Positions 565 to 59,965 of a DNA stretch of 64,000 nucleotides are shown piece after piece (positions within the stretch are counted from its first letter, which is position 1; every line of letters starts with the position of its first letter). The stretch is from IMG/VR virus record IMGVR_UViG_3300042197_003121; one strand, given 5' to 3'. The notes below the pieces were generated by a model, which worked only from the letters and a program-made list of their open reading frames with translations, was not told the origin of the DNA and ran no database searches. The position numbers and the translations under genes were made by a program. This stretch comes from an uncultured virus (IMG/VR IMGVR_UViG_3300042197_003121). Its lineage: Duplodnaviria; Heunggongvirae; Uroviricota; Caudoviricetes.

Positions 565-846
565 TCAGTCAGTTGGTTTAGATCGAATCTCATGAAGATA
601 CTCCGCCACCTGGAGCCGAAGTTCGGGCGGGATGAGATGACATTGGCTGATTTGAGCGCAGCACCACTCTAGCTCTGATGCAGCGCCCATGGCGTGACCG
701 GTGGTTAATCCTTTGTTGAAACCATAAGATGCACCTTTACGTACGATTGAACGGCAGGCTTCACCCTTACTGGTTTCTTTATTTAGGAGCTCTTTGGTCC
801 ATTCACGCACCCATTCTGGTGGTGGCATGAAGACAGGATCGATCAT
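565..846 (-). CDS. Hypothetical protein (PPPEW family, paralogue of 1897..2268)
   Basis: MIDPVFMPPPEWVREW...GAASELEWCC resembles PPPELVQQW...GADQELEACC; ATG at 846 preferred. Confidence 0.6.
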   Translation of the reverse strand: MIDPVFMPPPEWVREWTKELLNKETSKGEACRSIVRKGASYGFNKGLTTGHAMGAASELEWCCAQISQCHLIPPELRLQVAEYLHEIRSKPTD

Positions 847-8677: not shown

Positions 8678-8681
8678 AAAA

Positions 8682-8990: not shown

Positions 8991-9011
8991 CGCTTCTATG
9001 GCGAACGACCT

Positions 9012-9114: not shown

Positions 9115-9121
9115 GGTTTCA

Positions 9122-9391
9122 TTATTCTGGCTCAGCGTAAGCTGACTTGATCCGGTCGCCGCAATGGTCACAGTACAGGTCTGGGTCCTCCCAATTTGCG
9201 TCGATCGCCACCAGCCGCCAGCCATCAGTTCCCGTAGTGGTCCCAATATTGGAGCGTTCAGACTTTGCGCAACGATGGCAGCAGGCGCCGCCGTCATGGA
9301 ACACGCCGAACAGAGGGTAACCACCAGGCCAAGCGTATGGGCTGGCGCTGAGCTGATCAGCCAACCGGAGGCTGGCGCTTTGAGTTGTCAT
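9122..9391 (-). CDS. Hypothetical Zn-binding phage protein
   Basis: YAWPGGYP, CCHRC, NWED.DLYCDHC motifs. Confidence 0.75.
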   Translation of the reverse strand: MTTQSASLRLADQLSASPYAWPGGYPLFGVFHDGGACCHRCAKSERSNIGTTTGTDGWRLVAIDANWEDPDLYCDHCGDRIKSAYAEPE

Positions 9392-9412
9392 CGCATCTAG
9401 GGCGAACTACCC

Positions 9413-9514
9413 CCTCACTGTAGCGCACCGGCCAGCCCCACCACGGCCACTTCACACTTATTCATACTGTTAATCACTATCAACACAAAACTTAAAAAGG
9501 GGCCCGGAGGCCCC
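9413..9514 (-). promoter_or_regulatory. Terminator + TGTTGATAGTGA + promoter (module 4)
   Basis: Hairpin GGGGCC-CGGA-GGCCCC, AATCACTATCAACACAAAA, identical TGCGCTACAGTGAGG. Confidence 0.75.
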
Positions 9515-9520
9515 AGCTTG

Positions 9521-15314: not shown

Positions 15315-17147
15315 ATGGGATCACCACCACCACCTACTATTGTTTATTCGCCGCCGCCGCCGCCTCCAGCGCCGCCAACCCCTGTACCGACTCAGTCGTT
15401 GCAATCGCAAGCTGCGTTAAACGAGACTAGTTCTGCTCAACAAAGGCTCAACATGGAGCTTGGGGCACAGCTTGATCGTACTAACGCTGAGTTTTTTGCG
15501 GGTCAAGATGTACGAAGATATCAAGCGCAGGGTGCTGAACAGAGATTAACTGCAGCTGCAGTTGGTACGCAAGAGCGTGCAGTTGCAGCAGCTAAAGGAG
15601 ATCAAGAACGGAAAACTGCAGAAGTAACTGGATATCAACAGCGCTTAGGTATTGCTACAACTGGTACACAAGAACGACTTACTGCAGCAGCTAGAGGGGA
15701 GCAAGAGCGCCTAGGAATTGCGGCAACTGGAGCACAAGCTCGGGCGACTCAAGCTCAGTTACTTTCTGGGCAAGAACGACAGATTGGATTAACTGGTGAA
15801 CAAGCCAGAGCAACGCAGGCTCAGTTACTTTCTGGCCAAGAACGTCAAATTGGCCTGACTGGTACACAAGAACGGCTCACGGCAGCAACTAGAGGGGAGC
15901 AAGAGCGCCTAGGGATTGCCGCCACTGGAACACAAGCCAGAGCAACACAGGCTCAGTTGCTTTCTGGGCAAGAACGACAGATTGGATTAACTGGTGAACA
16001 AGCCAGAGCAACGCAAGCTCAGTTACTTTCCGGACAAGAACGCCAAATCGGATTAACCGGTGAACAAGAGCGGCTCACGCAAACACAACGATTCGCGGGT
16101 GAAACAGGGTTAATCCAAACTCGAGGGGCTGAAGAGCGTTTAGGAATCGCAACTACTGGTGAACAAGCCAGAGCAACACAGGCTCAGTTACTTTCCGGAC
16201 AGGAACGACAGATTGGATTAACTGGTGAGCAAGCCAGAGCAACGCAGGCTCAGTTACTTGCTGGCCAAGAGCGTCAAATTGGATTAACCGGTGAACAACA
16301 ACGTTTAGGAATCGTAACTACTGGTGAGCAAGCCAGAGCAACGCAAGCTCAGCTCCTTGCTGGTCAAGAGCGTCAAATTGGATTAACTGGGGAACAAGAG
16401 CGGCTCACGCAAGCACAGAGATTCGCGGGTGAAACAGGGTTAATCCAAACTCGAGGGGCTGAAGAGCGTTTAACAACTGAGACAGCAGGTTATCAACAGA
16501 GGTTAGGAATTGCTGCAACTGGTGAACAAGAGAGGCTCACACAAGCACAGCGGTTTGCGGGTGAAACAGGGTTAATCCAAACTCGAGGGTCTGAAGAGCG
16601 TTTAGGAATTTTGGCAACCGGCGAACAAGCCAGAGCAACGCAAGCTCAGCTTCTTGCTGGACAAGAACGCCAAATCGGGTTAACAGGTGAACAACAACGT
16701 TTAGGAATTGCAACTACTGGTGAACAAGAGAGGCTTACACAAGCACAACGGTTCGCGGGTGAAACAGGGTTAATCCAAACTCGAGGGTCTGAAGAGCGTT
16801 TAGGAATCGCAACTACTGGTGAGCAAGCCAGGGCAACGCAGGCTCAGTTACTTGCTGGACAAGAACGCCAAATCGGGTTAACAGGTGAACAACAACGTTT
16901 AGGAATTGCAACTACTGGTGAACAAGAACGACTAGGCATTGCAGCTACTGGTGAGCAAACCAGAGCAACACAGGCTCAGCTTCTTGCTGGTCAAGAACGC
17001 CAAATTGGGCTGACTGGTCAAGAGCAGAGAGCGACTCTTGCTAAATCCGGTGAAGAGACTCGTCTTACGGACTTGCAACAAGAGATGTTTAGGCGCTATA
17101 AAGAGAATCGAGATTTCGAACAAGCTCAACGGCAGTATCGAGTATGA
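15315..17147 (+). CDS. Hendecad-repeat coiled-coil protein
   Basis: 11-aa units TGEQARATQAQ, LLAGQERQIGL, TGEQQRLGIAT, RFAGETGLIQT; poly-Pro N-terminus. Confidence 0.85.
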   Translation: MGSPPPPTIVYSPPPPPPAPPTPVPTQSLQSQAALNETSSAQQRLNMELGAQLDRTNAEFFAGQDVRRYQAQGAEQRLTAAAVGTQERAVAAAKGDQERKTAEVTGYQQRLGIATTGTQERLTAAARGEQERLGIAATGAQARATQAQLLSGQERQIGLTGEQARATQAQLLSGQERQIGLTGTQERLTAATRGEQERLGIAATGTQARATQAQLLSGQERQIGLTGEQARATQAQLLSGQERQIGLTGEQERLTQTQRFAGETGLIQTRGAEERLGIATTGEQARATQAQLLSGQERQIGLTGEQARATQAQLLAGQERQIGLTGEQQRLGIVTTGEQARATQAQLLAGQERQIGLTGEQERLTQAQRFAGETGLIQTRGAEERLTTETAGYQQRLGIAATGEQERLTQAQRFAGETGLIQTRGSEERLGILATGEQARATQAQLLAGQERQIGLTGEQQRLGIATTGEQERLTQAQRFAGETGLIQTRGSEERLGIATTGEQARATQAQLLAGQERQIGLTGEQQRLGIATTGEQERLGIAATGEQTRATQAQLLAGQERQIGLTGQEQRATLAKSGEETRLTDLQQEMFRRYKENRDFEQAQRQYRV

Positions 17148-17653: not shown

Positions 17654-19177
17654 ATGGTAGCAACTAGCATCTATTCTGTATATCGGCGGACGGCGCGTGC
17701 TGCGGCGCAAAAGCGTGTCGTAAAACAGACAAGTACAGTAGATATTGAAAGGGCCAGAACAGATTTTGGTTACTTCTGTGAAGTTGTTGGCGATAAACCC
17801 CCAGCAGCTCATCACAAAGAGTGGCATAAATATCTCTGTACTGACGAAAACAGCGAATGTTTAATTGGCATCGCTGGGCCCAATGTAGATATTTTGGCGC
17901 CGAGGGGTAGTGCCAAATCAACGGTTTTAGGTTTATTCACTGCCTGGGCAATTGGGATACATGCTTTACACAAAAAACCACTTAAAATTCTGTACATCTC
18001 TTACACTGTTGACGTTGCTCGTCCAAAGAGTGCAGCCATTAAGCGAATCATTGAAGAAAGTAAAATTTACGGAGAAGTATTCCCAACCGTAAAAATTGCA
18101 AAGGGGATCAACTCCAACGAATACTGGAGCATTGATTGGAAGTTTGCAGGAATTAAATCTACCGGTGAGGAAGAATTTACTGTATGTTGCGCAGGCTTGA
18201 AAGGCGCTGTGACCTCAAAGCGTTCACATCTTTGCATTATTGATGACGCGATTAAATCTGCTGATGACATCAAGAACAGAGACATTCGCGCCGCGATGGA
18301 AGATAACTGGAATTCAGTTATTGTCCCTACGATGTTTGAAGGTGGCCGAGCAATTTGCCTTGGTACTAGATTTAGACATGATGATATCCATAACACCACT
18401 TTCATTCCGTCAAATGATTGGATTCAAATTGTTCAGTCAGCCATCACAATTGACGAGCAGGGAGAAGAACTATCCTATTGGCCTGCACTTTGGTCTTTAG
18501 ATTATTTGAGGGATCGCCGTAGGCAAGCGCCGATCGCATTTAGTTTTCAGTATCAGAATCAAATTGTACAAACCAGCGAGCTATCACTATCTCCCGATTT
18601 AATCGTTAAAGGTACGATTGCTACTCAATTTGATTCTTTGGGTGTTGGCGTTGACTTGTCGGCAGGTATTCGAGAGCAGAATGACTATACCGTGTTTACG
18701 ATGGGTGGTCGTGTTGGCGACAGAATTCACATCATCGATTGCAAACGAATTCGAATGATGGGTAACTTGGAAAAACTTGAAGCATTAATGGAGATGATGG
18801 AGGAATGGGGTGTTGTCCATAAAGACAACAATCGTTACTTCCCCACTGGTAGTAATATTGACATCTGGTCCGAAGCGGTTGCGTATCAGGCCTCGCTTGA
18901 GGCAGACTTCAAACGAATCTGCCTTGGGGAGCACGGACTTTACAACATGAATTGGCATGCAATCAAGGGATTCCGTGGTGACAAGGTGGCTAGATTCCGT
19001 GGCATCATGGGCTTATTTGAGCAACGGAAGATCATCTTCAATAAATACAGGCGTTTTGGTTACCTGCAAGATGAAATCGTGAATTTTGGTGTGAGCTCTC
19101 ACGATGACTGCGTTGACTCTTTGGTTTGGCTTTGCAACGGTTTAATGACCAGAGGAAAGCTTCAACTGGAGTTCTAA
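17654..19177 (+). CDS. terL: Terminase large subunit
   Basis: APRGSAKST Walker A, CIIDD Walker B, LGTRF, GVDL and HDDCVDS nuclease motifs. Confidence 0.95.
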   Translation: MVATSIYSVYRRTARAAAQKRVVKQTSTVDIERARTDFGYFCEVVGDKPPAAHHKEWHKYLCTDENSECLIGIAGPNVDILAPRGSAKSTVLGLFTAWAIGIHALHKKPLKILYISYTVDVARPKSAAIKRIIEESKIYGEVFPTVKIAKGINSNEYWSIDWKFAGIKSTGEEEFTVCCAGLKGAVTSKRSHLCIIDDAIKSADDIKNRDIRAAMEDNWNSVIVPTMFEGGRAICLGTRFRHDDIHNTTFIPSNDWIQIVQSAITIDEQGEELSYWPALWSLDYLRDRRRQAPIAFSFQYQNQIVQTSELSLSPDLIVKGTIATQFDSLGVGVDLSAGIREQNDYTVFTMGGRVGDRIHIIDCKRIRMMGNLEKLEALMEMMEEWGVVHKDNNRYFPTGSNIDIWSEAVAYQASLEADFKRICLGEHGLYNMNWHAIKGFRGDKVARFRGIMGLFEQRKIIFNKYRRFGYLQDEIVNFGVSSHDDCVDSLVWLCNGLMTRGKLQLEF

Positions 19178-19425: not shown

Positions 19426-21699
19426 ATGAGCGACGGAAATAAAACTGCCCTTGACGACATTCTTAAGGCAGTCATAACTCGCGATGGTAGCGGTCCCGCA
19501 GACACGATGCTAGTCAACGCGCATCTTGGGCAGATGCGTATGTTTGGCATACGACAAGGCGTTGAATTTTACCCAGAACAGGACAACCTCGGGACTCAAC
19601 GGTTTGATTTTGTTCAGCAAGTAATCAAATTTAATAAATTAGATGCTCGGCTGGATTCGATTTGGGATCGTTTCCTGTGTTACGGGAAGGGCCTGTTTTA
19701 TATTCGTCCAACCAAGAAAACATATCGCCTGTACTGGTTCGATAAAGATTCGTATCGCACTTATTATTCGCCGGATGGGGAACTGGAAGAAGTTATCATC
19801 ATCTACCCATACAAAGTTCGCTCCACTCGTGGTTTCCAGGGTGTTGGTTTAAATACGGATAAGCGCTACATGCGGCTTCGTATTACCGCTACCGAGATTG
19901 AGGAGTTTCACAGCGAGCAAGAAATTACATTTGATATGCCAACCATGGAGTTTGGCGTATTTGACAAGAAAACTGTTGTCAACACAATGGAATTTATCCC
20001 TTGTGTTGAGGTATTTAACAACCCAGATGCTTTTGGCACCGATGGTGCCGGTGAGTTCGATTGGATGTCAAACCAAATCATCGCACACGATGAGATGGTT
20101 AAGAATATTCGCGCAAACCTGTCTTTCTTTGGTAATCCCACTCTTCTTTCGTCAAGGCCCAAGCAAGACATCGTTGAAAGTGGGGATACAGATGTTGCCC
20201 AACGACCCAGCATTTCCAGTCAATCTGGATTCCAATCTGAATTTTTCTTATCCAGTTCAACATACAAGCAAGATAACGTAAATCGCCAACCTCCTGGTTA
20301 CATCGGTAAACCTGGAAGCGGCATGAGGGTTCCTCGAGTTATTGCCAACCTGGAGCCAACTGATCGTGTCGGTTTTATCACGCCGAACGCTGTTAGCACT
20401 GATCAGGCACGTTATGCAGAGCAGCTGCGGAGCGAGATTCGGTTGGCATTAGGTGGTATTGATGACTTGAGTATTACAAACGTTACCGCTACCGAAGTTA
20501 AATCGGCTTACGGTCGTGTCAGCGCCACTGCAAAGAAAAAGTGCTTACAACTTTATACGTACGGGATTTGCAAATGCTTCGAATTAATGATTTTTCAGGA
20601 AGAACAAATCTTCCGAAAATCATTGGCTTATGCCTCTGGAATTAAATATCCCGCTCCCCCAGAAAATCCGGATGATGAGGCCGCTGTTTTAAAATATGAA
20701 AAACAAAAATCAACTTACGAAAAGAAACTTCAAAAAGCTATTGATACAGCGTTAGAAACAAAAGAAATCCCAGATGGAGTTCTTGGTTTAGCTCCAGATG
20801 GTGATCGAACGGTAGCTTGGCGCTGGATGGGACCTGTTTACGAAGATACTCCGTCCGATAAATTAAACCAGTCTATCTTTACCAGGAACTTACAAGAGTT
20901 AGGGGTTGATAGCATTGAAGCACTGAAGTATTTGTTCCCTTCAAAAACGGATGACGAAATCGCGGGCATGCTCTCGGGGTTCCCATTCCGGATGGTGGGG
21001 GAAGTACAGAGGGCCTACTCCGCATTTATTGACCTTGTCAATTTAGAAATGCGGACACCACATCCGCAGCAACCGAATTTACCGATGGCTGCGGATCCAA
21101 GACTTGATCTTACCCCCTTCCTTTACCGAACTCTCGAAAGCCTACAAAAAGAGGTAACCTATGCAGGCCGATACCGCAATGCCGACCCAATCGGCACCCC
21201 AAGTATCCCCGACCCAGCCGACCAGCTACGCGGCTCCAATGACGCAAACGGCGGCCCAAGCTCCGGCGGTGGCGACCAACTCTCAATGGGTGGCGCCTTA
21301 CCAGCAGATGGTGGCCCCCGCCCCGCAAACCCAGGCCCAGATGGGGGTCCCCAGCTACCCATCAGCCCCTACAGCGTTTTACCCCCAAGCACCCCAGGCA
21401 GTCCCACAAGCGGCACCTCAGGCGGAGAATCCTTACAAGGAGGCGTTCAATCGGGTGGTGGGGCTCCTGAGTTCGCCCGTCCAATTCCCCTTCCAGGGTC
21501 AACAGTCGGCAGTGACTCAACCGGTAAACCCGGCCAGTTACGCTTCCCAACAGGCTCCCCAGTACAACAACGCGGGGATGCCGACCTCTATGCCTGGGAC
21601 CAGCAACAACCAGGCCTACTCCAACGGTTATTCCCAACCTTCACAGGAAATCAGCCAGGAACAGCTTCTGGCAAACGGAGTAAGCCCGCAAAGTCTTGA
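19426..21699 (+). CDS. Putative portal protein with long C-terminal extension
   Basis: Size and position between terL and scaffold/capsid genes. Confidence 0.65.
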   Translation: MSDGNKTALDDILKAVITRDGSGPADTMLVNAHLGQMRMFGIRQGVEFYPEQDNLGTQRFDFVQQVIKFNKLDARLDSIWDRFLCYGKGLFYIRPTKKTYRLYWFDKDSYRTYYSPDGELEEVIIIYPYKVRSTRGFQGVGLNTDKRYMRLRITATEIEEFHSEQEITFDMPTMEFGVFDKKTVVNTMEFIPCVEVFNNPDAFGTDGAGEFDWMSNQIIAHDEMVKNIRANLSFFGNPTLLSSRPKQDIVESGDTDVAQRPSISSQSGFQSEFFLSSSTYKQDNVNRQPPGYIGKPGSGMRVPRVIANLEPTDRVGFITPNAVSTDQARYAEQLRSEIRLALGGIDDLSITNVTATEVKSAYGRVSATAKKKCLQLYTYGICKCFELMIFQEEQIFRKSLAYASGIKYPAPPENPDDEAAVLKYEKQKSTYEKKLQKAIDTALETKEIPDGVLGLAPDGDRTVAWRWMGPVYEDTPSDKLNQSIFTRNLQELGVDSIEALKYLFPSKTDDEIAGMLSGFPFRMVGEVQRAYSAFIDLVNLEMRTPHPQQPNLPMAADPRLDLTPFLYRTLESLQKEVTYAGRYRNADPIGTPSIPDPADQLRGSNDANGGPSSGGGDQLSMGGALPADGGPRPANPGPDGGPQLPISPYSVLPPSTPGSPTSGTSGGESLQGGVQSGGGAPEFARPIPLPGSTVGSDSTGKPGQLRFPTGSPVQQRGDADLYAWDQQQPGLLQRLFPTFTGNQPGTASGKRSKPAKS

Positions 21700-23153: not shown

Positions 23154-25106
23154 ATGTTTATCGATAGCTAACTCAGATCCTGATAGGTTTTTCCTTTTAA
23201 GATTTGATAAACGGCTAAGTGATTACAATTGAAGTGATCCGCAATTTTTCGATAAGAAAAACCTTCGGCCCTCATCTGCTTCATTTGATTCACATCACTT
23301 TCTGAAAATTTTCTTAAAGTTTTTTTAGCCTTCCCTTTACTGGCATAACCATTTTTAGAGTAACATCCAGCTTTTAACGCCCTGTTGTAGTTTTCTCTTT
23401 TTGTAACGACCTCAAGATTTTCAAGAAAATTGTTTCTTTTGTTGCCATCTTTGTGATCAACCTGAAGAGAATTGCTTCGAACTCCGTGACGAGTTAGATC
23501 TAAATTTAAAAAAGTTATTGCCATAAGAACATGTATGTGATAGCGTTTCCTTTCCCCCTCTTGGGAAATAGAAATTCTGTTGTACGTGCTCGTAGAACTA
23601 ATGCTCAATTCAACAAAACCATTATCGGTTTTTTGATACGGCGTTCCGGTTTCATCTAAGTAAAGGTTTTCGAATCCAGGGACTAGTCTTGGTTCCATGT
23701 TGTATAAAAACAACTTGATTCCAAATTAGCATGCCTTAGCTGAGTAGTCAATGTTGTCGCCTAATCAGGTAACTGATTAGTGAACACCGGGTGAATTCAG
23801 GGAAGCCCTAACGTAAAGACGAGGGTAATCCTGAGCCAAGCCAACTAAGTCCGTAGTTGGAAGGTGCAGAGACTAGGCGGTGGATGACGCTTCATCCGTA
23901 ATACGTCGTTAGCGCCCGGCACCCTACCAAGGGTGAAGAGATAGTCCACCCCTTCAAGAAATTGAAGATCAGGAGAACGACTTTCCCAAGCTGTTGGGTG
24001 CGGAGCTGTACCGCCCCCATCCGGCTTACATTGTGGAAATGGCAGCTGAGCCTGTTGTTGTCCACGATTTCACTAAACAGCCTGGTCAAACTGTTCAGTT
24101 AGACCGGTATCGTTTCTGGGGCAACCCTGGGACCAAGACTCAGCGTGAGCGCACCCAAGACCAAACGATCGGTACGGCCAACAGCCGCTCCATCGTTAAG
24201 GACAAGGTGCTTGTGTCTCTGCGTGAGTACACCGGCCCTGCTGACCCGAATAACTCCAACCTCCCGAGCACCTTCAAGATCGCTCGTGAGACTCTGATGA
24301 CCGCACAGCGCCTGCTGCTGGACACCGGGAACCTTAACATGTTCCACCAGTCCATCGGTTCGCTGACCCTGCTCGATGACTATCGTCGTTGGCGCGATCG
24401 CGTCTTCCTTGACGAGTTCTCGAAATCTGAAGCTCGTGGCGCTGCATCTGATACCCAAGGTGGTTATTACTACCCCAACGGTAAAGTCAAGACTGGCGCG
24501 ACTACTCTGACTGCCTATAGTGCAACTGAGTACGCTTCGGAGCGTTACAAGTTCAACGTTAAGACCGACCTGCTGGAAGTTGTCAAGCAACTTCGTAAGC
24601 GGAACACCCCTGTGTTTGCTGACGGTTACTACCGTTGTATCGCTGATCCCTCCTTCATGAAGGATCTGCGTGCTGACCAAGGCTTCCGTGAAGTGGCTCG
24701 TTACCCTGGCATGGGTCAGCCTAACCCCCTGATGGGTGCTATGGCGCCTAACTCCGCCATCTATGGCGGTGGCCAGTTCGGTCAAGCTCAGTTCGTTGCT
24801 GGCGAACCCGTCATGCCTTCCGGCTTTGTGTTTGAAGGTGTCCGGTTCTTCGAATCGACCAACTTTGCTGACAAGTCAATCACTGTTGACATTGGCGACG
24901 GTAGTGGTGCTATTTCTCACACCACTCCTCCCGCTCTGTTCTTTGGCCCTCAAGCCGTCGGCGTGGGTATCGGTGGTCCGAACGCTCAGGTTCTGATCAA
25001 CAATAACGACGACTTCAGCCGCTTCATCATCCTGATTTGGCAGCTGTACGCCGGTTTCGCGAACCTGAACAAGGACTTCGTGACTGCCGCCTTCACCATC
25101 GTTTGA
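23154..25106 (+). CDS. Major capsid protein, spliced: exon 1 23154-23165, exon 2 23976-25106 (380 aa)
   Basis: Joined exons read MFID-NDFPKLLGAELYRPHP; strongly biased codons; QPGQTVQLDRY and G.FEGVRFFES capsid-like motifs. Confidence 0.85.
23166..23975 (+). mobile_element. Group I intron (810 nt)
   Basis: P GAATTCAGGGAA, Q AATCCTGAGC, R GTGCAGAGACTA, S AAGAGATAGTCC; P3 CCGGGTG/CGCCCGG, P8 and P9 hairpins; 5' exon ends in U, intron ends in G; frame restored. Confidence 0.92.
23168..23713 (-). CDS. Intron-encoded HNH homing endonuclease (antisense to host gene)
   Basis: YHIHVLMA..F, VDHKDGNKRNN...NLEVVT..EN, C-terminal HTH. Confidence 0.9.
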   Translation of the reverse strand: MFLYNMEPRLVPGFENLYLDETGTPYQKTDNGFVELSISSTSTYNRISISQEGERKRYHIHVLMAITFLNLDLTRHGVRSNSLQVDHKDGNKRNNFLENLEVVTKRENYNRALKAGCYSKNGYASKGKAKKTLRKFSESDVNQMKQMRAEGFSYRKIADHFNCNHLAVYQILKGKTYQDLS

Positions 25107-35978: not shown

Positions 35979-36383
35979 ATGGCAACGCAAGTACAATTCC
36001 GGCGCGGAACTTCAGCGGAAACAGCGACTTTTACAGGTGCTGTAGGAGAAGTTACTGTTGATCTTACAAAGCATACTTGTGTTGTTCATGATGCTTTGCA
36101 AGTTGGTGGATATCCCCTTCTTCTTGAAAATGGAACAAATAGCGCATTTTCATTAGGATCTTTAAGTAGCTGTGCTTTAAAATTTGCCGGAGATCCAAAC
36201 ACAGGTATCATTAGCCCTGGCGCCGATCAAATTGCACTTGTGACAGGAGGTGTTGCTAGGCTTACAATAGATTCATCTGGATCGGTTACCATCCCTGGCA
36301 ACGTTTCCATCACTGGTGGTTTAACTGTGACAGGGGCCTTTAATTCCACTGAAAACCTTGCACTTATTGTTGCCCTAAGCTGA
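35979..36383 (+). CDS. Fibre protein with Mtd/hyaluronidase-type N-terminus
   Basis: QVQFRRGT.AE..TFTGA.GEVTVD...VVHD...GG. Confidence 0.8.
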   Translation: MATQVQFRRGTSAETATFTGAVGEVTVDLTKHTCVVHDALQVGGYPLLLENGTNSAFSLGSLSSCALKFAGDPNTGIISPGADQIALVTGGVARLTIDSSGSVTIPGNVSITGGLTVTGAFNSTENLALIVALS

Positions 36384-37126: not shown

Positions 37127-39325
37127 GTGCCGTATTTAGGAAACGATCTACAGGTTGCGCAGCCTTCGTATCGCAACATTGATGATATCAGCGGTTCTTT
37201 TAATAGTTCAACGACATCTTTTCCTTTATTGGTAAGTGGTAGCGCTCCAGTTCCATTTCCAATCAATTCTAACCAATGTTTAATTTCTGTTGCTGGTGTC
37301 GTTCAACGGCCCGATGACAGCGGTACCGAAGGATTTCGGATCAGTGGGGGAAATATTATCTTCAGCTCAGCTCCGAATACAGGGGCGGACTTTTTCGGTG
37401 TCATTCTAGCTGGCGCTGATTACGTTAATGTCGGCGCTAATTTTCCAAGTGGTTCAGCTGCAGTTCCAAGTATTACGTTTGATTCGGATTTAGATACTGG
37501 CATTTACAATTCAGCTGCTAATCAGGTTTCTATTACAACGGCTGGAACTGAAAGGTTACGTATTGATTCTGCTGGTCAAATTGAAGCTGTTTCTCTTGGT
37601 ACGGCTGGAGCTCCTAGCTTTAGTTTTGCGACTGATCCGAACACCGGAATTTATTCCCCCGGCGCTGACCAAGTAGCGGTAGCAACTAATGGGACTGGGA
37701 GGTTGTTTATCAGCGCTGATGGCGTAGCTACTGGCGGCGCAGCTCAATCTGGCTACGGAGGATTGCAAGTAAGGAATGGCTTTATCTATGTCAATGAAGA
37801 CGGAGCCAATACTGTACAGATGTATTTGCGCACTGTTTCAAATGAGGCTGCGATTCAGGTTGCAACTAATCATCCATTCAAGATTCAGACAAACAATCAA
37901 GAACACCTGCGCATCACCTCCGCTGGCCTCGTAGGCATAGGGACTAGTTCGCCTGTCGGAAATTTAGACGTCACCTTTAGCAACTCAACTGCTTACTCCA
38001 GCAGCAATATGTTTGCTGGAGGAATTAGTCAGTATATTTACAACTCTTCGACAACTGATGGCGTAGCTTCAACTTTAGGTCTTGCTGCCAAAGGTTCAGG
38101 TACAACTGCTCAGGCAGCTATTTCCGCAATTTATTCTTCAACTGGTGTTGGGCACCTGGCATTTGGCACACGCGCTGGCGGAAATGTTATTGAGCGGATG
38201 AGGCTTACCTCAACTGGACTAGGGGTCGGCACTACGAGCCCTGGCTCGCCGCTAACGATTGAAAGTAGTGCTGGCAATCAAGTCAAAATTACTTACCCGT
38301 CGATTGCTTCTTACTTTCTGAACGCAACGTCTGGTGGTGATTTTGCTATTAACAAGGACGGCACCGAACGCGCCCGCATCGACTCCAGCGGACGCCTCTT
38401 AGTTGGTACGTCTTCTGCTCGTGCAAATTATTTCAATTCAACTGCAACAACACAACTCCAAATTGAGAAGGCCGGTGGTGATGGTGGTGTTTCGGTTATC
38501 AGTGATTCTGTTGGCGACGACCCGGCAATTCTGATTCTTGGAAAATCAAACAACGCCTCATTGGGAGGCAATACCGCTGTTGCCGTAGATAACTTTCTTG
38601 GCACTGTTTCTTTTCAAGGAAACGATGGGACAGAGTTTGTTGATGCTGCTCGCATCAGTTGTTATGTAGACGGTACCCCTGGCGCTAATGACATGCCAGG
38701 CCGCCTAGTGTTCTCCACTACTGCGGATGGGGCGAGTTCTCCGACGGAGCGGATGAGGATTGGGCAAAACGGGCAAGTATTGGTTGCTCACGGAACAAGT
38801 AGTTCTGTAATTCAAGGAGAATCAAGTATTGCAAGCGCTTATGCCAACTCAATTTTTGTAGCTCGGTTTACTGGTTATTCACCGAATACCACGAGCAATT
38901 ATTTTTTCTACTGTGAAGACACAATTTCAGCCCGTGCTTACATTTATAGTAATGGCGGCTTAGCCAACTACCAAGCAAATGATGTCAATCTTTCAGACCG
39001 TAACGTCAAGAAAGACATCAGTCCTGCTGCTGACACTTGGAACTGCCTTAAAGAATGGGAGATCGTCAACTACCGCTACAAAGATCAGCCGGATGATGCT
39101 GACCTGAACTTTGGCGTTATCGCTCAGCAGGTAGCGGAAAGCTGTCCTGAAGTCGTCACCATCTTCCAAGAGGCAAAGGAGGCGACCGAAGACCAACCCG
39201 CCCAGGAAGAACGCTTGGGTGTCAGGGAACAGCAGATGTACTGGATGGCGATCAAAGCTCTTCAGGAAGCTCAGGTTCGCATCGAGCAACTGGAAGCCAA
39301 AGTTGCAGCCCTTGAAAGCGCGTAG
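37127..39325 (+). CDS. Modular tail fibre with C-terminal intramolecular chaperone (peptidase S74)
   Basis: ERMRI.S.G.VGIGT repeats; SDRNVKKDI, GVIAQQV, C-terminal coiled coil. Confidence 0.9.
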   Translation: MPYLGNDLQVAQPSYRNIDDISGSFNSSTTSFPLLVSGSAPVPFPINSNQCLISVAGVVQRPDDSGTEGFRISGGNIIFSSAPNTGADFFGVILAGADYVNVGANFPSGSAAVPSITFDSDLDTGIYNSAANQVSITTAGTERLRIDSAGQIEAVSLGTAGAPSFSFATDPNTGIYSPGADQVAVATNGTGRLFISADGVATGGAAQSGYGGLQVRNGFIYVNEDGANTVQMYLRTVSNEAAIQVATNHPFKIQTNNQEHLRITSAGLVGIGTSSPVGNLDVTFSNSTAYSSSNMFAGGISQYIYNSSTTDGVASTLGLAAKGSGTTAQAAISAIYSSTGVGHLAFGTRAGGNVIERMRLTSTGLGVGTTSPGSPLTIESSAGNQVKITYPSIASYFLNATSGGDFAINKDGTERARIDSSGRLLVGTSSARANYFNSTATTQLQIEKAGGDGGVSVISDSVGDDPAILILGKSNNASLGGNTAVAVDNFLGTVSFQGNDGTEFVDAARISCYVDGTPGANDMPGRLVFSTTADGASSPTERMRIGQNGQVLVAHGTSSSVIQGESSIASAYANSIFVARFTGYSPNTTSNYFFYCEDTISARAYIYSNGGLANYQANDVNLSDRNVKKDISPAADTWNCLKEWEIVNYRYKDQPDDADLNFGVIAQQVAESCPEVVTIFQEAKEATEDQPAQEERLGVREQQMYWMAIKALQEAQVRIEQLEAKVAALESA

Positions 39326-39337
39326 TCCCCTTCACTT
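39323..39337. repeat. TAGTN-N5-NACT site on the fibre stop codon
   Basis: TAGTC-CCCTT-CACTT; 14/15 identical to 55522-55536. Confidence 0.75.
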
Positions 39338-39939: not shown

Positions 39940-41190
39940 ATGAAAACGTCTCAATCTGGTGTAGACCTTATCAAATTGTTTGAAGGTCTTCGTTTTGATG
40001 CTTATTACGATGCTGTCGGCGTTCTTACAATAGGTTACGGACACACTGGCCCCGATGTAAAGGTCAATAGCCGCGTTAATGAACAACAGGCGGAAATCCT
40101 TTTAAGAAAAGACCTTTCAAGATTTGAAGAAGCAGTTAAAACCCGCGTAAAGATAACTTTAAACCAATTCCAATTTGACGCATTGGTCTCATTTTGTTTT
40201 AATGTAGGCGTCAATGCATTTTCTGAATCTACATTATTAAGACGACTTAATGCAAAAGAAGACCCTTGTGTCGTCGCAAAAGAAGAATTACCGCGTTGGA
40301 ATAAAGGTAATGATGGGAAAGAATTGGCAGGATTAACAAGGCGCCGGTCTACTGAAGTTGAATTGTTTTGCCAAGAAGCACCAAAAACAAAGACCGGATT
40401 AATTACAATTACAGCCAACACCCATACTTATTTAAAAAAACAACCAATTCCCTCGGAAACGTTAGATAGCACCCAGAAGGCAAGAATTTATCAGAACAGG
40501 GAAATTAAAAATTGCATTATTTTAGAAAGAAAGAATAATCACACCTACTTAGAACTTGGATTTGGTTTAGGTAAATGGTGGGTTTTTGATCCCCATTGGC
40601 GTGGCCTGGAAACGCAACCGCCTGTAAACCCATATGCTACTGACAACGATTTACATTTTCTTCGTAATTTCCCATATTTCTACCAGCAAGACAATGGGCC
40701 TGAAGGGTGGCGCCAATGTCAAACCAGTTCGATTGCCATGTGCCTTAAATATTTGGACACACCTGGCATTAAAGATGATGTTGATTACTTAAAAATTGTA
40801 AACAAATACGGAGATACTACTAAGCGGGATCCGCATTTTAGTGCATTGGCAGAATTGGGGATTCAAGCTAAATTTACGGTGTCCGCAGATGTAGAGGACG
40901 TTAAAGATGAAATTAAAAAGGGACTCCCAGTTGCTGCTGGTATTCTTCACCATGGAGCTTACTCTGCTCCTATTGGCAGCGGCCATTTCATTGTCATTAC
41001 TGGATATGGTAAAGACTATTGGTTAGTACAGGATCCATACGGCGCCCTCGATTTAATCAACGGCGGGTGGTTGAAACGAGGTGCGACAGATGGAAAAAAT
41101 ATCCGATACCCGTTTAAGTATTTTAATCCGAGATTTTGTGTTGGTGGCGGGTCCAACGGCTGGTGTTGGATAGGATTTAAGAAAAAGTAA
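39940..41190 (+). CDS. Endolysin: GH24 lysozyme plus C39-like peptidase
   Basis: FEGLR..AY.D..GV.TIGYGHT, GL.RRR..E; QCQTSSIAM, GHFIVITGY, DPYG. Confidence 0.9.
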   Translation: MKTSQSGVDLIKLFEGLRFDAYYDAVGVLTIGYGHTGPDVKVNSRVNEQQAEILLRKDLSRFEEAVKTRVKITLNQFQFDALVSFCFNVGVNAFSESTLLRRLNAKEDPCVVAKEELPRWNKGNDGKELAGLTRRRSTEVELFCQEAPKTKTGLITITANTHTYLKKQPIPSETLDSTQKARIYQNREIKNCIILERKNNHTYLELGFGLGKWWVFDPHWRGLETQPPVNPYATDNDLHFLRNFPYFYQQDNGPEGWRQCQTSSIAMCLKYLDTPGIKDDVDYLKIVNKYGDTTKRDPHFSALAELGIQAKFTVSADVEDVKDEIKKGLPVAAGILHHGAYSAPIGSGHFIVITGYGKDYWLVQDPYGALDLINGGWLKRGATDGKNIRYPFKYFNPRFCVGGGSNGWCWIGFKKK

Positions 41191-41905: not shown

Positions 41906-42289
41906 TTATTTTAATGTACTAGCTTTACCAGCACAACTTCTAGAACAGTATGGACCGGATTTGTTCCGTTTTTGATTGTGCTTGACTTGAGGCATTGATC
42001 TTGTAAAAGAACAATTACATGTTGGACAAGTAAAAACACCGATCTCTGCTGGTCTTAGCACCGCGTGCTTGCGTATATTATCACCACGACTGAGGACCTG
42101 CAAGTTATTTAAAGAATTATTTGTATAATCGCCGTCAATGTGATCACAAGTTTCATGTGGCAAAAGTTCCCGGCCAAGTTTCTTTTCTAAAAGAAACTTT
42201 GGATAACTAACGGTTTTACGCTTACCATTTTCGTAAAGTACTATGTGCTGTCTGCCATCTTTTCGCGTATAGGGTCCGTAAATTTTCAT
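41906..42289 (-). CDS. Free-standing HNH endonuclease
   Basis: LGREL...ETCDHIDGD.TNN..NNLQVLS; C-terminal C..C and YCSRSC. Confidence 0.9.
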   Translation of the reverse strand: MKIYGPYTRKDGRQHIVLYENGKRKTVSYPKFLLEKKLGRELLPHETCDHIDGDYTNNSLNNLQVLSRGDNIRKHAVLRPAEIGVFTCPTCNCSFTRSMPQVKHNQKRNKSGPYCSRSCAGKASTLK

Positions 42290-42398: not shown

Positions 42399-42809
42399 AT
42401 GTTCCATTGCGAGAAGGATTTACTCCACAACCTCATTGTTTTAACTCCGAAACTCGCTCGAAAACAATTTAGACGCCACATTTTTGATGCTTGGGGCTGG
42501 AAGTGTGCTTATTGTGATCGTCAGCTAGATGAAACTACGGCCACTATTGACCACATTTTGCCCAAACATAGAGGCGGTCAGAGTGTGAGATCAAATCTTG
42601 CATGTTCGTGTAATTCATGTAATAGATCAAAGGCTAGCCAGTTATTGCAGGCATGGTTTAATGCCTCGCACCCTCACTATTGCGAGCAAAGGCTTGCTAA
42701 ACTAATTCAATGGATGGATCAGGGTACCTGTTCCATAAAATTATCTTCCACGGATCCAGCGGTTCCGTACATTACAAATGATGGCTACATCGGATGGATC
42801 GCAAGCTAA
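42399..42809 (+). CDS. HNH endonuclease (McrA-like Zn type)
   Basis: CAYC, TIDHILPKHRGG, NL..SC.SCN..K. Confidence 0.9.
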   Translation: MFHCEKDLLHNLIVLTPKLARKQFRRHIFDAWGWKCAYCDRQLDETTATIDHILPKHRGGQSVRSNLACSCNSCNRSKASQLLQAWFNASHPHYCEQRLAKLIQWMDQGTCSIKLSSTDPAVPYITNDGYIGWIAS

Positions 42810-50962: not shown

Positions 50963-51293
50963 CTTTTACGTTCAATCCTGTGTAGAGACCATTGGTTCTA
51001 CCTGATTGTTGATACATTTCTTCAATAATTATACTCCGATCAGGATAATAGCCCTCGTCCTGAACCGTTTTAATTGTTTCAAAACTTAACCGTTTCTCAA
51101 GGCAGCGCAACTCCAGCATCGCTTCTTCTTCGTCATCAAAGATTTCGGTGTAGTGATTTTCACCACCGATGCAGATGTGGCCGTAATATTTTTTTTCCTT
51201 GAGGTGATAATTAGTCGGAAGAATCTGACTGATTTTGGAGTTGACTTTCACGGTGATGCTGAAAGATGTTGGTGTGACGGAGTTTGACTTCAC
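50934..51293 (-). CDS. Hypothetical protein
   Basis: MY.QSGRTNGLYTGL motif; start uncertain. Confidence 0.55.
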   Translation of the reverse strand: MKSNSVTPTSFSITVKVNSKISQILPTNYHLKEKKYYGHICIGGENHYTEIFDDEEEAMLELRCLEKRLSFETIKTVQDEGYYPDRSIIIEEMYQQSGRTNGLYTGLNVKDGSVPVDNS

Positions 51294-52362
51294 CGGTCAT
51301 TTCTGGTTCAGGAAGATTTTTGATTTCCCGAATTGACAGGTGCTTTGGATTGCAACAAAAAGCGTGGCAGCTTGGCTTGTTGAAGACTTTGTATTTTCCA
51401 GTATATCCACGACTTAACCAAAATGCGACACGTGGTGCGGACTGAGTTTTGCCTGAGTGGAAAGGGCTCGGGAAATAAGCGATTGACTCGGTGTTGTCCC
51501 TGCGCGTGGTGCCTAACCAAGGCCAGCACTCATCTTCACCTTTGATGTCAACCTGTTCCCAGAAGCGCTTGACCGTCCAGTACCATTTATGATCGAACTG
51601 GGTTACGTCAACAGCACAGCGCCCCTTTTTGATTTCCTCCATGCAGTCCAAGCATTCTCCCATGAGTCCAAAGTTGCCTTTGTGCTTGTCGCTGCCTTTG
51701 TGGTGCCAGAGGCACTCTGATTCGTTTGCCACGTGGTAGGCGAGGTTGTAGCTTTTTGCCGCCTTGGGGTGATTTTGACAGATATTGGTGCAAGTTTCAA
51801 TGGTTTGGTCCCATAGCCGCTGGAGGTACTTTTCGCTGAAGTTCCCGTTATGACTGTTGTATGTGTTGTCTGAGCAGATGCGCCGCGCCGTGTGGTAGGC
51901 AATCTTGTACTTTCTTGACAGTCTCAAAATAGACTCACCCGCGTCTCTTTCCATCCGCATTTGCGCTGCTATCACCGCCGTCACTTCGTTTTGCTTTTTT
52001 TCTGCTTTTGGTTTGCGGATATTGTTTTCTAACGCGACATCACTTTTGGTTCCATAGTAGTAGTGGCTGGGATTCATGCAGTGAGAGGACTTGCAGATTC
52101 CTCTCCGCACCAGGATGGGCAGCTCGTCGGTGTAGTAGCGGCCTGTCATCGCTAACAGCAATGGACGGGCGTCCTGGCTGCGGTACAGGAGCTTGGATTT
52201 GTTGCAGGAGCTGAAGCCTTCAAAAACGGAGCTGCTGTACTGCCGAACACACCAGCACCGGTCGGGCCCCAGGACACGGAGGTTGACCTGGATGACTTTG
52301 GCGAACACAACCGCGTCATCGGTGGTGAGGCTGGATTCGCGGAAAAAACGTACGGGATCCAC
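51211..52362 (-). CDS. Protein with two HNH/His-Cys-box-like Zn domains and central HTH
   Basis: DRCW...C...HCMNPSH...GT and DECWPWLG...C...CCNPKHL. Confidence 0.7.
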   Translation of the reverse strand: MDPVRFFRESSLTTDDAVVFAKVIQVNLRVLGPDRCWCVRQYSSSVFEGFSSCNKSKLLYRSQDARPLLLAMTGRYYTDELPILVRRGICKSSHCMNPSHYYYGTKSDVALENNIRKPKAEKKQNEVTAVIAAQMRMERDAGESILRLSRKYKIAYHTARRICSDNTYNSHNGNFSEKYLQRLWDQTIETCTNICQNHPKAAKSYNLAYHVANESECLWHHKGSDKHKGNFGLMGECLDCMEEIKKGRCAVDVTQFDHKWYWTVKRFWEQVDIKGEDECWPWLGTTRRDNTESIAYFPSPFHSGKTQSAPRVAFWLSRGYTGKYKVFNKPSCHAFCCNPKHLSIREIKNLPEPEMTGEVKLRHTNIFQHHRESQLQNQSDSSD

Positions 52363-52472
52363 TGGGTTTTGGTGTGTTTCGAGATTTTAGGCTGAGATCG
52401 GTCTCGTGTCAACGGTTCTCATGCACTGCCAAAGTAATCGATGAAAAGGGGGTTTAACTCTTTAAATATTTG

Positions 52473-52795
52473 TTGGGTTAATCCTCTGACTGTACATTTT
52501 CAGCCCTTTTCAGCCCAATATACAGTCATAGGATTAACCCAACCCATACGGGGGAAGTGAAAACAGCCAAAAAAACGGATTGTCTTGTACGTCGATTAAA
52601 TCGACTGCACCGCAACGCATCTCAAGAAATTTTTGACTTTTCAACCAAAACCCACATGCGTTTTGACCCTTTTTTCGCCCGTTTTGACTCACAAATCTCA
52701 CTTGAGTCTCAAAATGGTCTTATTGGGTTAATCCTCTGACTGTATATTCCCCTGTTTTTGGGCATGTACAGTCAAAGTACTCCCCATATGCAGTC
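52473..52795. repeat. 22-bp direct and inverted repeats, origin-like
   Basis: TTGGGTTAATCCTCTGACTGTA at 52473 and 52723; inverted copy at 52521-52542 with 1 mismatch. Confidence 0.85.
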
Positions 52796-54485: not shown

Positions 54486-55514
54486 GTGTCTCAGACGAAA
54501 GCCGAGCTGATTAAAGGTCTAAATATTAATGCGTCTGCTCCTGCTACAGCTTTGCAGATTGACGCAAGCGGAAATGTAAATATTGACAGCAACACGCTAT
54601 ACGTTGATGCGACCAATAACCGAGTAGGCATAGGGATTAGTGACCCCGCCCAATCTTTAGATATTTACGGCAGCGGCACATCGACGAGTCAAGTTGCTGC
54701 AATTACTCTTCGTGACGGCAATAGCTCCTCTTCGCGCAGGTGGTGTATATCAAACGGAGCTGGCGGCAATGCAGCAGACTTGTTCGGAAAACTTGTTATT
54801 GGCTATGGATCAACTGTAACTGCGAATCCAATCACAGGCACTGCGGCGGTGGTCATCGACTCCTCAGGTCGTGTAGGGATTGGCGCTACTACAGTTCAGT
54901 CGTTGCTTCATCTCTCGACTTCTGGCCTAGCCGATCTTCGCTTTACTGACACGGGCGAGACAACTGATCAGAAAAACTGGGCATTTCAAACAGGAACAGG
55001 TATCGGCGCAGACACCTTTAGACTTCGTGCAATCAATGATGCTAACAATTCAGGCGACAACGCATATGTAATTACAAAGTCTGGAGCTAGCATCCAAACG
55101 CATCAATGGTTGACTGGAGGCAGCGAACGCGCCCGCATCGACTCCAGCGGCAGGCTCTTAGTTGGTACGTCTTCCGCATCTGGTGGCGCATTATTGCAAG
55201 TAAATGGCGGAGCAACAGTAGGAGCTATTTCAACGCTTTCTGGTACAACAGGATCACTAGCGCTAAACGCAACAGCAACAATTATATCAGGCATTGGAGC
55301 GGGGACTGTATATCAAGTCACCGCAATGACGGCTGATAGCAACACTGACTGGTTTTTAGTCGCCTACGTCGGAGGCCGCTTTGGAACTTCACTTCGCATT
55401 TCACAGCATATAGCAAGTAACGTAGACTTAACGTCAAGCGGAACGGATTTATTGATTAGAAATTTAAGCAGTACCGCTGTTTCATTTGGCTGGACCGCGT
55501 TAAGGATTAAATGA
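54486..55514 (+). CDS. Second modular tail fibre
   Basis: LYVDATNNRVGIG, IDSSGRVGIG, ERARIDSSGRLLVGTSS. Confidence 0.85.
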   Translation: MSQTKAELIKGLNINASAPATALQIDASGNVNIDSNTLYVDATNNRVGIGISDPAQSLDIYGSGTSTSQVAAITLRDGNSSSSRRWCISNGAGGNAADLFGKLVIGYGSTVTANPITGTAAVVIDSSGRVGIGATTVQSLLHLSTSGLADLRFTDTGETTDQKNWAFQTGTGIGADTFRLRAINDANNSGDNAYVITKSGASIQTHQWLTGGSERARIDSSGRLLVGTSSASGGALLQVNGGATVGAISTLSGTTGSLALNATATIISGIGAGTVYQVTAMTADSNTDWFLVAYVGGRFGTSLRISQHIASNVDLTSSGTDLLIRNLSSTAVSFGWTALRIK

Positions 55515-55521
55515 TTCCCAG

Positions 55522-55536
55522 TAGTCCCCTTCACTA
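55522..55536. repeat. TAGTN-N5-NACTA site
   Basis: TAGTC-CCCTT-CACTA between the fibre stop and the next ATG. Confidence 0.75.
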
Positions 55537-55538
55537 CC

Positions 55539-59032: not shown

Positions 59033-59965
59033 TTATGAGTCTTCCCTGTCTCCATCTACAAGTTCAAGGTCCATCTCAGCGGCCTGTTGTGCTGGCAAGA
59101 TCTCGGAGTAATACTTCTCCACGGCTTCCAGCCACTTCTCTTTGTATTTCTCAATTGTTCCACCCTGTACCGCAAAGACTTGAGATCGCTCTCGTGTCGC
59201 GACAAAGATCATGAAAATCTCAGGGACGATATTGACGGTGTGCTCCAGCCCCATGGCATAAGCACCAAGCTGCATCATGCATTTTTGATATTTCATGAAG
59301 CCAGCACGTCGCATCCCATACTCATTCTTCGGGCAATCCGGACCGGGCCATTTGGCGTAGTACGGTCCATTTGATGTCTTTAGGTCACCCAAGACGATCT
59401 TATTTTTGTATTCGGCGACGATATCGGGTGCTCCTGACCAGCCCCAGGTCTCTCCTTCTTTCACCCCTGGATGCCAAACCCGGCTAATGGTGTCTTCCCC
59501 TGTACACCATGGAAATGCGTTCCCAACTGGATTTTCGGCCCAGATGACGCGACCGAGTTTATCTAGATTCTCGGGGAGGCCGCTCCAGAACTGGGCAATT
59601 TCTTCTTCTTCAATGACCGGATTCTTGTTGATTCCAAGGAGGTACTCCTCCATCAGAGAGTGAACGCGGGTTCCACGTGCCGCAGCAGCTTCTCGTCCAC
59701 CGGGATTTTTCTTTGCCCAACGTTCAAGAGCAGCCTTGTTTCCTCCTGTGGCTGAGAGGATAGTCGTAACTGAGGGAAGGTTGCCGTAAGGGGTACGGTA
59801 ATGGCGAGACCCGTTTATTGTTACTCGGGTATTCCCTTTTGACCTGTAATCCACGAAGTCCGACCAAGAGTATTTCTTCGTCGGATCGTAAACTGTATAA
59901 ATTTTGCGCTCTAATTCTTCGCTTGAGAGAACTACTGCAGGAATTTCAAGCACTGCAGGGGGCAC
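59033..59965 (-). CDS. PD-(D/E)XK exonuclease
   Basis: LPSVTTIL, RGT.VH..ME, G.PD, DLKTS, QL.AY. Confidence 0.9.
   Translation of the reverse strand: MPPAVLEIPAVVLSSEELERKIYTVYDPTKKYSWSDFVDYRSKGNTRVTINGSRHYRTPYGNLPSVTTILSATGGNKAALERWAKKNPGGREAAAARGTRVHSLMEEYLLGINKNPVIEEEEIAQFWSGLPENLDKLGRVIWAENPVGNAFPWCTGEDTISRVWHPGVKEGETWGWSGAPDIVAEYKNKIVLGDLKTSNGPYYAKWPGPDCPKNEYGMRRAGFMKYQKCMMQLGAYAMGLEHTVNIVPEIFMIFVATRERSQVFAVQGGTIEKYKEKWLEAVEKYYSEILPAQQAAEMDLELVDGDREDS

Follow-up and report, generated by a model that had tools for sequence, protein, structure and literature searches.

Does a phage tail-fibre gene carry, within its coding sequence, DNA sites at which its modules are exchanged? The question is raised by IMG/VR record IMGVR_UViG_3300042197_003121, an uncultured Caudoviricetes virus, of which a stretch of 64,000 nucleotides (nt), below called the window, was analysed. 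The initial annotation of its tail-fibre gene described one 15-mer recurring at module junctions and proposed in-frame crossover points of a shufflon-like system; tail fibres set host range. We found that the gene is a mosaic in which conserved linker patches alternate with variable cassettes, and that each of the 15-mers lies within one patch. The 15-mers are most readily explained as by-products of conserved peptides that mark the patches of a cassette-built fibre, whose cassettes would be swapped by homologous exchange in the patches, with no dedicated site; we give this reading a probability of about 0.7.

37127..39325, plus strand: tail-fibre gene, 732 aa, GTG start (open reading frame list, Pfam and PHROG)

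Peptide origin of the 15-mers

The product of this open reading frame (ORF) matches PHROG tail-fibre families (best E 3.9e-85). Residues 623-677 match PF13884 Peptidase_S74 (E 7.8e-12; score 45.7 bits, cut-off 22), which points to a C-terminal chaperone domain, and residues 623-628, SDRNVK, would be the S74 catalytic Ser-Lys motif, named SDxxxK in the available part of PMC10769870. A weak sequence match (E 3.6e-4, peptide ERMRITGSGLVGIGTPAP) was found with the solved Bdellovibrio fibre Bd1334 (8oml; partial and full beta-helix), which the same text describes as a trimeric beta-helical 'mosaic adhesive trimer' (MAT). DNA similarity in the phage collection is limited to short pieces of Synechococcus phages (18 of 18 records), and the gene is present in public runs labelled freshwater metagenome. 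The product is predicted to be a trimeric beta-helical tail fibre of the Synechococcus cyanophage type with an S74 autoproteolytic chaperone.

All six 15-mers described earlier were recovered with the same sequences, coordinates and peptides. Four have the exact form TAG-N9-CTA, namely 37674 TAGCGGTAGCAACTA (VAVAT), 37932 TAGGCATAGGGACTA (VGIGT), 38220 TAGGGGTCGGCACTA (LGVGT) and 38706 TAGTGTTCTCCACTA (LVFST, with 5-nt arms). The other two, at 38400 and 39323, end in CTT and fall outside the pattern, so that a single site shared by six places is reduced to four. The codon phase said to be common to the five internal sites is indeed the same, phase 2, in all four exact ones. However, this follows from the way the arms arise at fixed codon junctions: in every case TAG is formed by a Val or Leu codon ending in TA and the next codon starting with G, and CTA by the Thr codon ACT and the next codon starting with A (xTA|Gxx ... 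xCT|Axx). The Leu codons CTA and TTA differ from Val GTA by one base, and thus retain TA by descent.

The 15-mers at 37932, 38220 and 38400 come from copies of a single peptide repeat, ERxRIxSxG-x-(V/L)G(I/V)GT-xSP. There are six copies of the ERxRI...G repeat in the fibre, two with the exact site, one with a degenerate site and three with none. The remaining two internal sites sit in QVAVATNG and GRLVFSTT, and a paralogous copy of the VAVAT motif (VSITTA, 37526-37543) has neither the TAG nor the CTA arm. The VGIGT repeat is a protein element: it aligns to Bd1334, and its synonymous positions vary freely in a broad scan of viral contigs (see below). VGIGTxxP may correspond to the 'capping loop' consensus in the available part of PMC10769870. 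A literature search retrieved no published account of a GIGT-type tail-fibre repeat, and a listing of the cyanophage fibre-mosaic literature likewise had nothing on the motif.

The window contains 22 matches to TAG-N9-CTA with 9.0 expected, a number reached in none of 100 shuffles. Six of them belong to one tandem repeat in ORF 15315-17147, four to the fibre and one to a second fibre-like gene, and the remainder is near expectation. In 20,000 synonymous-codon shuffles of the fibre gene the mean was 1.04 sites; the probability was 0.014 for four or more sites and 0.003 for four sharing one phase. These values are nominal, as the pattern was picked after the data had been seen and a single peptide repeat accounts for three of the sites, and it is in this nominal sense that the number of sites in the fibre exceeds chance.

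Linker patches and cassettes

Six patches of 50-120 nt are alike among co-circulating fibres, and the segments between them are replaced. The 39323 site lies in a conserved stretch at the gene end (39293 onward); the other patches and the modules at the two ends, as well as a second gene with similar patches, are the following.

37127..37711, plus strand: N-terminal anchor module, holding patch P1 (about 37595-37711) with site 37674-37688 (VAVATN); phrog_18673 at residues 1-134
37901..37954, plus strand: patch P2, EHLRITSAGLVGIGTSSP, with core A GTA GGC ATA GGG ACT AGT at 37931-37948; depth spike, contig skips ending here
38195..38243, plus strand: patch P3, RMRLTSTGLGVGTTSPG, with the window variant of core B, CTA GGG GTC GGC ACT ACG, at 38219-38236; loose end in run X4 at 38220
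38360..38422, plus strand: patch P4, GTERARIDSSGRLLVGTSSA, with the degenerate site 38400-38414; right edge of the swap between loci L022 and L023
38666..38761, plus strand: patch P5, GTPGANDMPGRLVFSTTADGASSPTERMRI, with core CTA GTG TTC TCC ACT at 38705-38719; aligned segments 78-98% identical, largest depth spike
38947..39325, plus strand: C-terminal S74 chaperone block, 67-85% DNA identity in most relatives; 5' boundary without a 15-mer
54486..55514, plus strand: second fibre-like gene, 342 aa, no S74 domain, PHROG tail-fibre matches

The N-terminal module (gene nt 1-582..586) has 84-94% DNA identity to eight loci, L003-L010. Homology stops at 37708-37712, 20-24 nt beyond the first site, and gives way to six different continuations. 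At the other end, in most relatives, the start of the S74 block lies near 38947-38951, away from any 15-mer. Short high-scoring segment pairs (HSPs) cover P2 in L014, L029, L030, L032, L041 and L042 (83-98% identity) and P4 in 13 loci (80-95%).

Both P2 and P4 recur in the second fibre-like gene, P2 as a 38-nt repeat copy at 54624-54661 and P4 as 59 nt with 92% identity at 55119-55177. The order of elements in this gene is that of the main fibre: core A (54624-54641), core B (54873-54890), patch P4. In BLASTP the only peptide that the two products have in common is the 20-residue one of P4. The second gene could be a partner for intragenomic gene conversion. A third fibre gene begins at 3-407 on the minus strand and continues beyond the window start; its N-terminus matches PHROG 18673 (E 1.5e-30), like the anchor of the main fibre.

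In contigs of four public runs, the summed depth spikes at the patches and contigs jump from patch to patch. In run X5 the depth at the patches is 773, 293, 1509, 521 and 2063, compared with 0-53 between them, and in the run that best holds the gene contig breaks fall at 37679-86, 38393-99, 38716-33 and 39304-33. The joint 38391|CAA|37930, a module-order variant that falls just before core A, was seen in X1, X3 and X4. The run data consist of contigs only, in which rare rearranged molecules are invisible and uncovered parts are uninformative.

Several exchanges of one-sided or cassette type can be read from the sequence comparisons. The block 38220-38391/38418 has 81-89% identity to L034, L040, L041 and L042, whose upstream flanks are unrelated. 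Its first base is that of the 38220 site; upstream of the block, two of these loci have an indel of one codon and an ERxRI motif of weak similarity. In L022 and L023 identity is 100% in nt 1-801 and again in the last 930 nt, with the segment between P3 and P4 wholly replaced. Among 210 pairs of contexts of the core class named type B below, the identities of the left and right flanks are uncorrelated (-0.05), and seven pairs are alike on one side only. At third codon positions the GC content (GC3) of patches is 0.53 and that of cassettes 0.34 (Fisher P 2e-4); values range from 0.53 to 0.61 for patches and the S74 block, and from 0.29 to 0.39 for cassettes and the N-terminal module. This contrast fits an origin of the conserved parts from a shared pool.

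The positions of the boundaries agree only in part with the initial annotation, which placed them at the 15-mers. The shared block does start at 38220, the joint lies beside core A, and 23 of 350 interior endpoints of long HSPs fall within 6 nt of a phase-2 TAG-N9-CTA, with 9.9 expected. However, the two main boundaries (37708-37712 and about 38947) and most others are elsewhere, and only 5 of the same 350 endpoints fall inside such a site, with 5.5 expected. As in-frame crossover points for module swaps the sites keep this much of their meaning, that they mark conserved patches between swapped segments; they are not a dedicated recombinase site.

We suggest the following explanation. The five internal 15-mers are the DNA image of the most conserved patch peptides, (V/L)G(I/V)GT, LLVGTS, LVFSTT and VAVATN. 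The patches are the only DNA likeness left among the otherwise unalignable fibres of co-circulating cyanophages, and since they alone stay alike, homologous exchange between co-infecting phages, or among the two or three fibre genes that one genome carries, would start and end in them. Such exchange would swap cassettes in frame and make a dedicated recombinase site unnecessary; repeated many times, it may keep the cores alike. Recombination in the patches as the mechanism is our inference from the sequence comparisons.

No integrase, invertase or reverse transcriptase (RT) was found in a Pfam scan of 85 window ORFs or a PHROG scan of 79, which cover the window only, a part of the genome. The one recombinase-related match, to the resolvase-type HTH_7 motif, falls in the HNH protein encoded at 23168-23713. 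No inverted repeats of at least 22 nt in the window involve the fibre gene, there are no inverted cassettes, and all sites lie in one continuous ORF, inside which the minus-strand ORFs are only 70 and 98 aa. With no recombinase among the window ORFs, no inverted repeats or cassettes, and no likeness of the coding sites to the intergenic motif described below, the shufflon-like host-range system was abandoned.

Conservation of synonymous positions

A degenerate search of viral contigs for GNVGIGTxxP produced at least 139 loci, with 223 instances among the matches listed; the counts from this search refer to these matches. The Val codons are GTA 58, GTC 70, GTT 60 and GTG 35, and Thr is ACT in 65. 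TAG-N9-CTA is complete in 25 of the 223, and its frequency falls with GC content from 18/101 below 0.40 to 0/37 above 0.50. The type-B core of the present clade occurs in 1 of 221 instances, and the spread of differences from it fits independence. Thus, outside this phage group the VGIGT peptide is kept with free synonymous variation.

The related set comprised 40 unique fibre ORFs (41 loci and the two genes of the window) with 37 distinct 18-mers. Here the choice of codons is not free: Val is GTA in 20/27, Leu is TTA or CTA in 9/9, and Thr is ACT in 26/37. The spacer is equally biased, with GGG in 19/37 compared with 12% of Gly codons elsewhere, and TAG-N9-CTA is complete in 14/37.

Same-residue codon identity in the window-centred comparison is 0.51 (276/540) at site codons, 0.56 in the arms, 0.44 in the flanks and 0.53 in the S74 block. 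This test is insensitive, because BLASTP mixes paralogous repeats, and therefore motif-centred tests were added. When compared in the same gene pairs, P5 and S74 have equal codon identity (183/338 and 377/696, both 0.54). L016 and L017 write LVFSTT as CTC GTA TTT TCT ACA ACG, with all five synonymous positions altered, and L035-L038 use GTG...ACG.

On the other hand, a number of observations weigh against the explanation suggested above. The type-B core GTA GGG ATT GGC ACT has a pairwise codon identity of 813/916 = 0.89 in 21 distinct contexts, compared with 0.42 in flanks, 0.56 in S74 and 0.76 in the best 5-codon S74 run; type B means (V/L)G(I/V)GT without a following Ser, a subset drawn post hoc. 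A second degenerate scan, for the P5 core, yielded at least 128 loci with 125 unique contexts among the matches listed. The core YTA GTG TTC TCC ACT is exact in 48 of these 125, and the distribution is all-or-none (observed 48, 5, 9, 22, 30, 11; expected 11.7, 37.6, 44.7, 24.4, 6.0, 0.5). At third positions of the invariant residues neighbouring this core, the major base has a frequency of only 0.44-0.74. The cores are also found in the cultured phages 7B11-B, S-CBP4 and DSL-LC07 (Autographiviridae) and in the siphovirus S-LBS1, which differ in family, habitat and GC content, and therefore they are not assembly artefacts; for S-LBS1 the available text of PMC6157547 gives 60.2% GC in the genome and 53.8% in the fibre. 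The two 15-nt cores are real exceptions, more synonymously conserved than either codon usage or a peptide-linker account predicts. Furthermore, 15-nt islands with sharp edges are short for conversion tracts, and the left crossover in L022/L023 is outside the core, 24 nt or more upstream of it. Finally, most relatives are metagenome assemblies, possibly chimeric at shared words, and all run data are contigs.

The conserved unit is exactly five codons, codon-aligned, with the spacer as fixed as the arms. The final A of CTA is missing in 6 of 21 type-B contexts, and the conserved form of P4, TTA GTT GGT ACG TCT, is the one off the TAG-N9-CTA pattern. A common TAG-N9-CTA site is therefore not what is conserved. 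Fixation of synonymous positions, suggested as a check in the initial annotation, was found in the near-invariant type-B and P5 cores; other classes are at baseline (core A 0.48 against 0.44, VAVAT in P1 0.50 against 0.46, pooled motif 0.50 against 0.39), and P4 is intermediate (0.67 against 0.50). Of the proposed constraint at the level of DNA rather than protein, what is supported is synonymous conservation beyond codon usage in two cores; in viral contigs at large these positions vary freely.

The motif at the ends of fibre genes

Two copies of an intergenic motif are present at the ends of the fibre genes of the window.

39322..39337, plus strand: intergenic motif GTAGTCCCCTTCACTT, overlapping the fibre stop codon; ATG 17 nt after the T of TAG
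55521..55537, plus strand: second copy, 7 nt past the stop of the second fibre-like gene; equal distance to the next ATG

The general form is GTAGTC[CA]CCTTCACT(A/T)C, and weaker copies were found at 1884-1899 (minus strand), 2457-2476 and 1468-1487 (minus strand). Wherever a gene follows, the next ATG stands a fixed 17 nt from TAG. Among 32 related loci with the ORF end inside the locus, GTAGTCCCCTTCACT overlaps the fibre stop in 15 and follows the stop within 7 nt in two more. It is present in S-LBS1 and S-CBP4, with variants in DSL-LC07 and 7B11-B, has one or two copies per genome, and is followed by differing sequences in different phages. This is a real element, separate from the internal sites, and resembles a module boundary or a translation leader.

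A weight matrix was built from 14 intergenic instances. True instances score 30, and random TAG-N9-CTA 15-mers have a mean of -5.9, a standard deviation of 6.7 and a 95th percentile of 5.5. The coding sites score from -11.2 to 7.2 and are not recognised. In particular, the resemblance that had been noted between the reverse complement of 37932 and the terminal site at 55522 amounts to 12 matching bases of 16 and a score of 3.3, which is not significant.

In S-LBS1 (L311) a tyrosine integrase gene, 3898-4752, lies directly 3' of the related fibre gene and the end motif. The available part of the paper on this phage treats it as the lysogeny integrase (PMC6157547).

Alternative explanations

One possibility is that there is only protein-level conservation and chance, recombination having no role and mosaicism arising from fast divergence of surface loops between conserved strands and from chimeric assemblies. 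This would agree with the free synonymous variation in broad scans, with a window-centred codon identity equal to the S74 baseline, with the three of six peptide repeats that have no site, and with relatives that are mostly metagenome contigs. However, it is difficult to reconcile with L022 and L023, identical on either side of a fully replaced cassette, or with one right-hand module joined to four unrelated left flanks and the N-terminal module joined to six different continuations. The module-order variant in three runs, the presence of cores and patches in cultured isolates, and the difference in GC3 between patches and cassettes also speak against it, and we consider it unlikely.

The sharp edges of the codon-aligned 15-nt synonymous islands, which stand in diverged contexts and also in isolates of different families, suggest another possibility, namely that the cores are DNA-level crossover signals of the form TAG-N7-CACTAC. 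A phage or host nuclease or recombination protein would act on them, and together with the intergenic motif they would serve programmed exchange of fibre cassettes. Three DNA-conserved elements fit this pattern, which has four matches in the window with 0.24 expected; however, it was derived post hoc from the sequences it matches, and relatives are near the reversed-pattern controls (G002 3 against 1, G003 4 against 2, G004 1 against 2, G005 0 against 0). The block shared with L034, L040, L041 and L042 opens at the first base of the 38220 site and the joint 38391|CAA|37930 is just 5' of core A, but the main boundaries and the left crossover of L022/L023 are away from the cores. Candidate enzymes are four HNH endonuclease ORFs (23168-23713, 41906-42289 and 51211-52362 on the minus strand, 42399-42809 on the plus strand) and an exonuclease (59033-59965), the window also encoding a primase (Pfam/PHROG), while no recombinase or invertase was found among the window ORFs scanned. 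Excess conservation is lacking in core A, P1 and the pooled motif class, the conserved state of P4 is off the pattern, and the intergenic weight matrix fails on the coding sites. All this makes such a signal rather improbable. The same holds for the wider proposal that the cores and the GTAGTC..CACTAC end motif form one signal family, TAG-N7-CACTAC, common to several cyanophage families as crossover points for cassettes and whole fibre genes, which we regard as doubtful. If it were true, fibre cassettes and whole genes would be exchangeable in frame across phage families, in a programmed, community-wide shuffling of host range; and cores and an end motif that were functional DNA or RNA elements would be new.

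Least probable is a requirement of RNA or translation unrelated to recombination, for example a pause site, or a small hairpin aiding co-translational trimer folding: the P5 core at 38706, alone among the sites, forms a small hairpin (5 bp, fold -4.7 kcal/mol, z -4.9), the cores use codons rare in the gene (GTG 2/53 Val, TCC 6/82 Ser, ATA 1/47 Ile), and the L3-T3 pair is complementary in 32 non-haplotype contexts with 23.3 expected (P about 0.015), but three of the five hairpin pairs are dictated by the peptide, the second free pair does not covary (33 against 29.6, P 0.23), the G-C excess is explicable by GC3 alone, the covariation as a whole is weak and confounded by GC3 and relatedness, the other sites fold no better than shuffles, and many phages write the same peptides with other codons.

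Three further candidates were rejected. A diversity-generating retroelement was set aside as no RT domain was found and the repeats shared with the gene are only the 38-nt and 59-nt patches. A T7-type promoter, which CACTA presumably resembles, was rejected as the window yielded no phage RNA polymerase. A role as a restriction or methylation target was rejected since phages tend to avoid rather than keep such sites. Separately, ORF 35979-36383 (134 aa), just 5' of the tail assembly chaperone and the fibre, has an Mtd_N domain (N-terminus of the major tropism determinant, E 3.7e-10); no RT or template repeat was found.

Comparison with known systems

In the shufflon of R64 (Rci) and in the Gin/Cin/Min systems, alternative pilus or fibre tips are made by recombination at short repeats within coding sequence. 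These systems have a site-specific recombinase, inverted repeats and inverted alternative segments in one genome, none of which was found here within the window. Short conserved intergenic sequences at mosaic joints are known as lambdoid module boundary sequences and as T4-type promoter-stem-loop cassettes. The motif GTAGTCCCCTTCACT at fibre-gene ends behaves like these boundary sequences, but in contrast to the T4-type cassettes it has no demonstrated promoter or stable stem-loop (folding test) and only one or two copies per genome.

There is a likeness in working to the T-even adhesins gp38 and gp37, for which homologous recombination at motifs has been proposed (PMC3157838, available part). 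In them, as in the present fibre, conserved (glycine-rich) motifs alternate with hypervariable segments and the N-terminal attachment part is conserved. The modular design of gp38 is seen here, since Gly-rich motifs take turns with segments that are replaced and exchanges fall in the motifs or close to them, but as a likeness of working only: scans of the window gave no gp38-like PHROG or Pfam match. Unlike the T-even adhesins, this is a long, predicted beta-helical cyanophage fibre with an S74 domain, and its linkers consist of copies of the repeat ERxRI...VGIGT..P. The available part of the T-even account mentions neither codon-aligned 15-nt invariant cores nor a 3' boundary motif.

In protein architecture the fibre resembles the Bdellovibrio MAT fibres and S74 phage fibres such as T5 pb1 and K1F endosialidase, which have in common with it an S74 chaperone with SDxxxK; from the weak match to Bd1334, it may have trimeric beta-helix segments like theirs. 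Bd1334 (8oml) contains ERMRITGSGLVGIGTPAP, and the MAT fibres, like this fibre, combine a conserved end with swapped tips (PMC10769870). As far as its available text goes, that paper deals with protein architecture and not with linkers at the DNA level. Mosaic fibres with conserved linkers are an already known design, of which this fibre is a further case. A linker and cassette fibre common to podoviruses and siphoviruses of Synechococcus, marine and freshwater, would account for the way these phages keep up with their hosts, and the patches would offer defined junctions for engineering chimeric fibres.

Other features of the window

The window is phage DNA, with genes for terminase (17654-19177), a large virion protein (19426-21699), the major head protein (23994-25106) and tail proteins, and an endolysin gene (39940-41190) downstream of the fibre gene (Pfam and PHROG scans).

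ORF 15315-17147, the source of six TAG-N9-CTA matches, encodes a 610-aa protein whose N-terminus is rich in Pro and which contains some 40 copies of 11-residue units rich in Q, E and R (GEQERLGIATT / GEQARATQAQLLAGQERQIGLT). At the DNA level these are tandem repeats of 33/66/99 nt, and the matches come from the ERLGIATTG units. The sole family match of this ORF is weak, to a PHROG of unknown function.

A cluster of inverted and direct repeats of 26-32 nt (TTGGGTTAATCCTCTGACTGTA...) occupies the intergenic region 52467-52748, upstream of 53081. Four copies of a direct repeat of 27-46 nt (TTAATCACTATCAAC...), each followed by a GC-rich hairpin, were observed at 7546-9519, a region with a GC content of 0.54-0.56 and few long ORFs. 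These may be regulatory or terminator-like elements.

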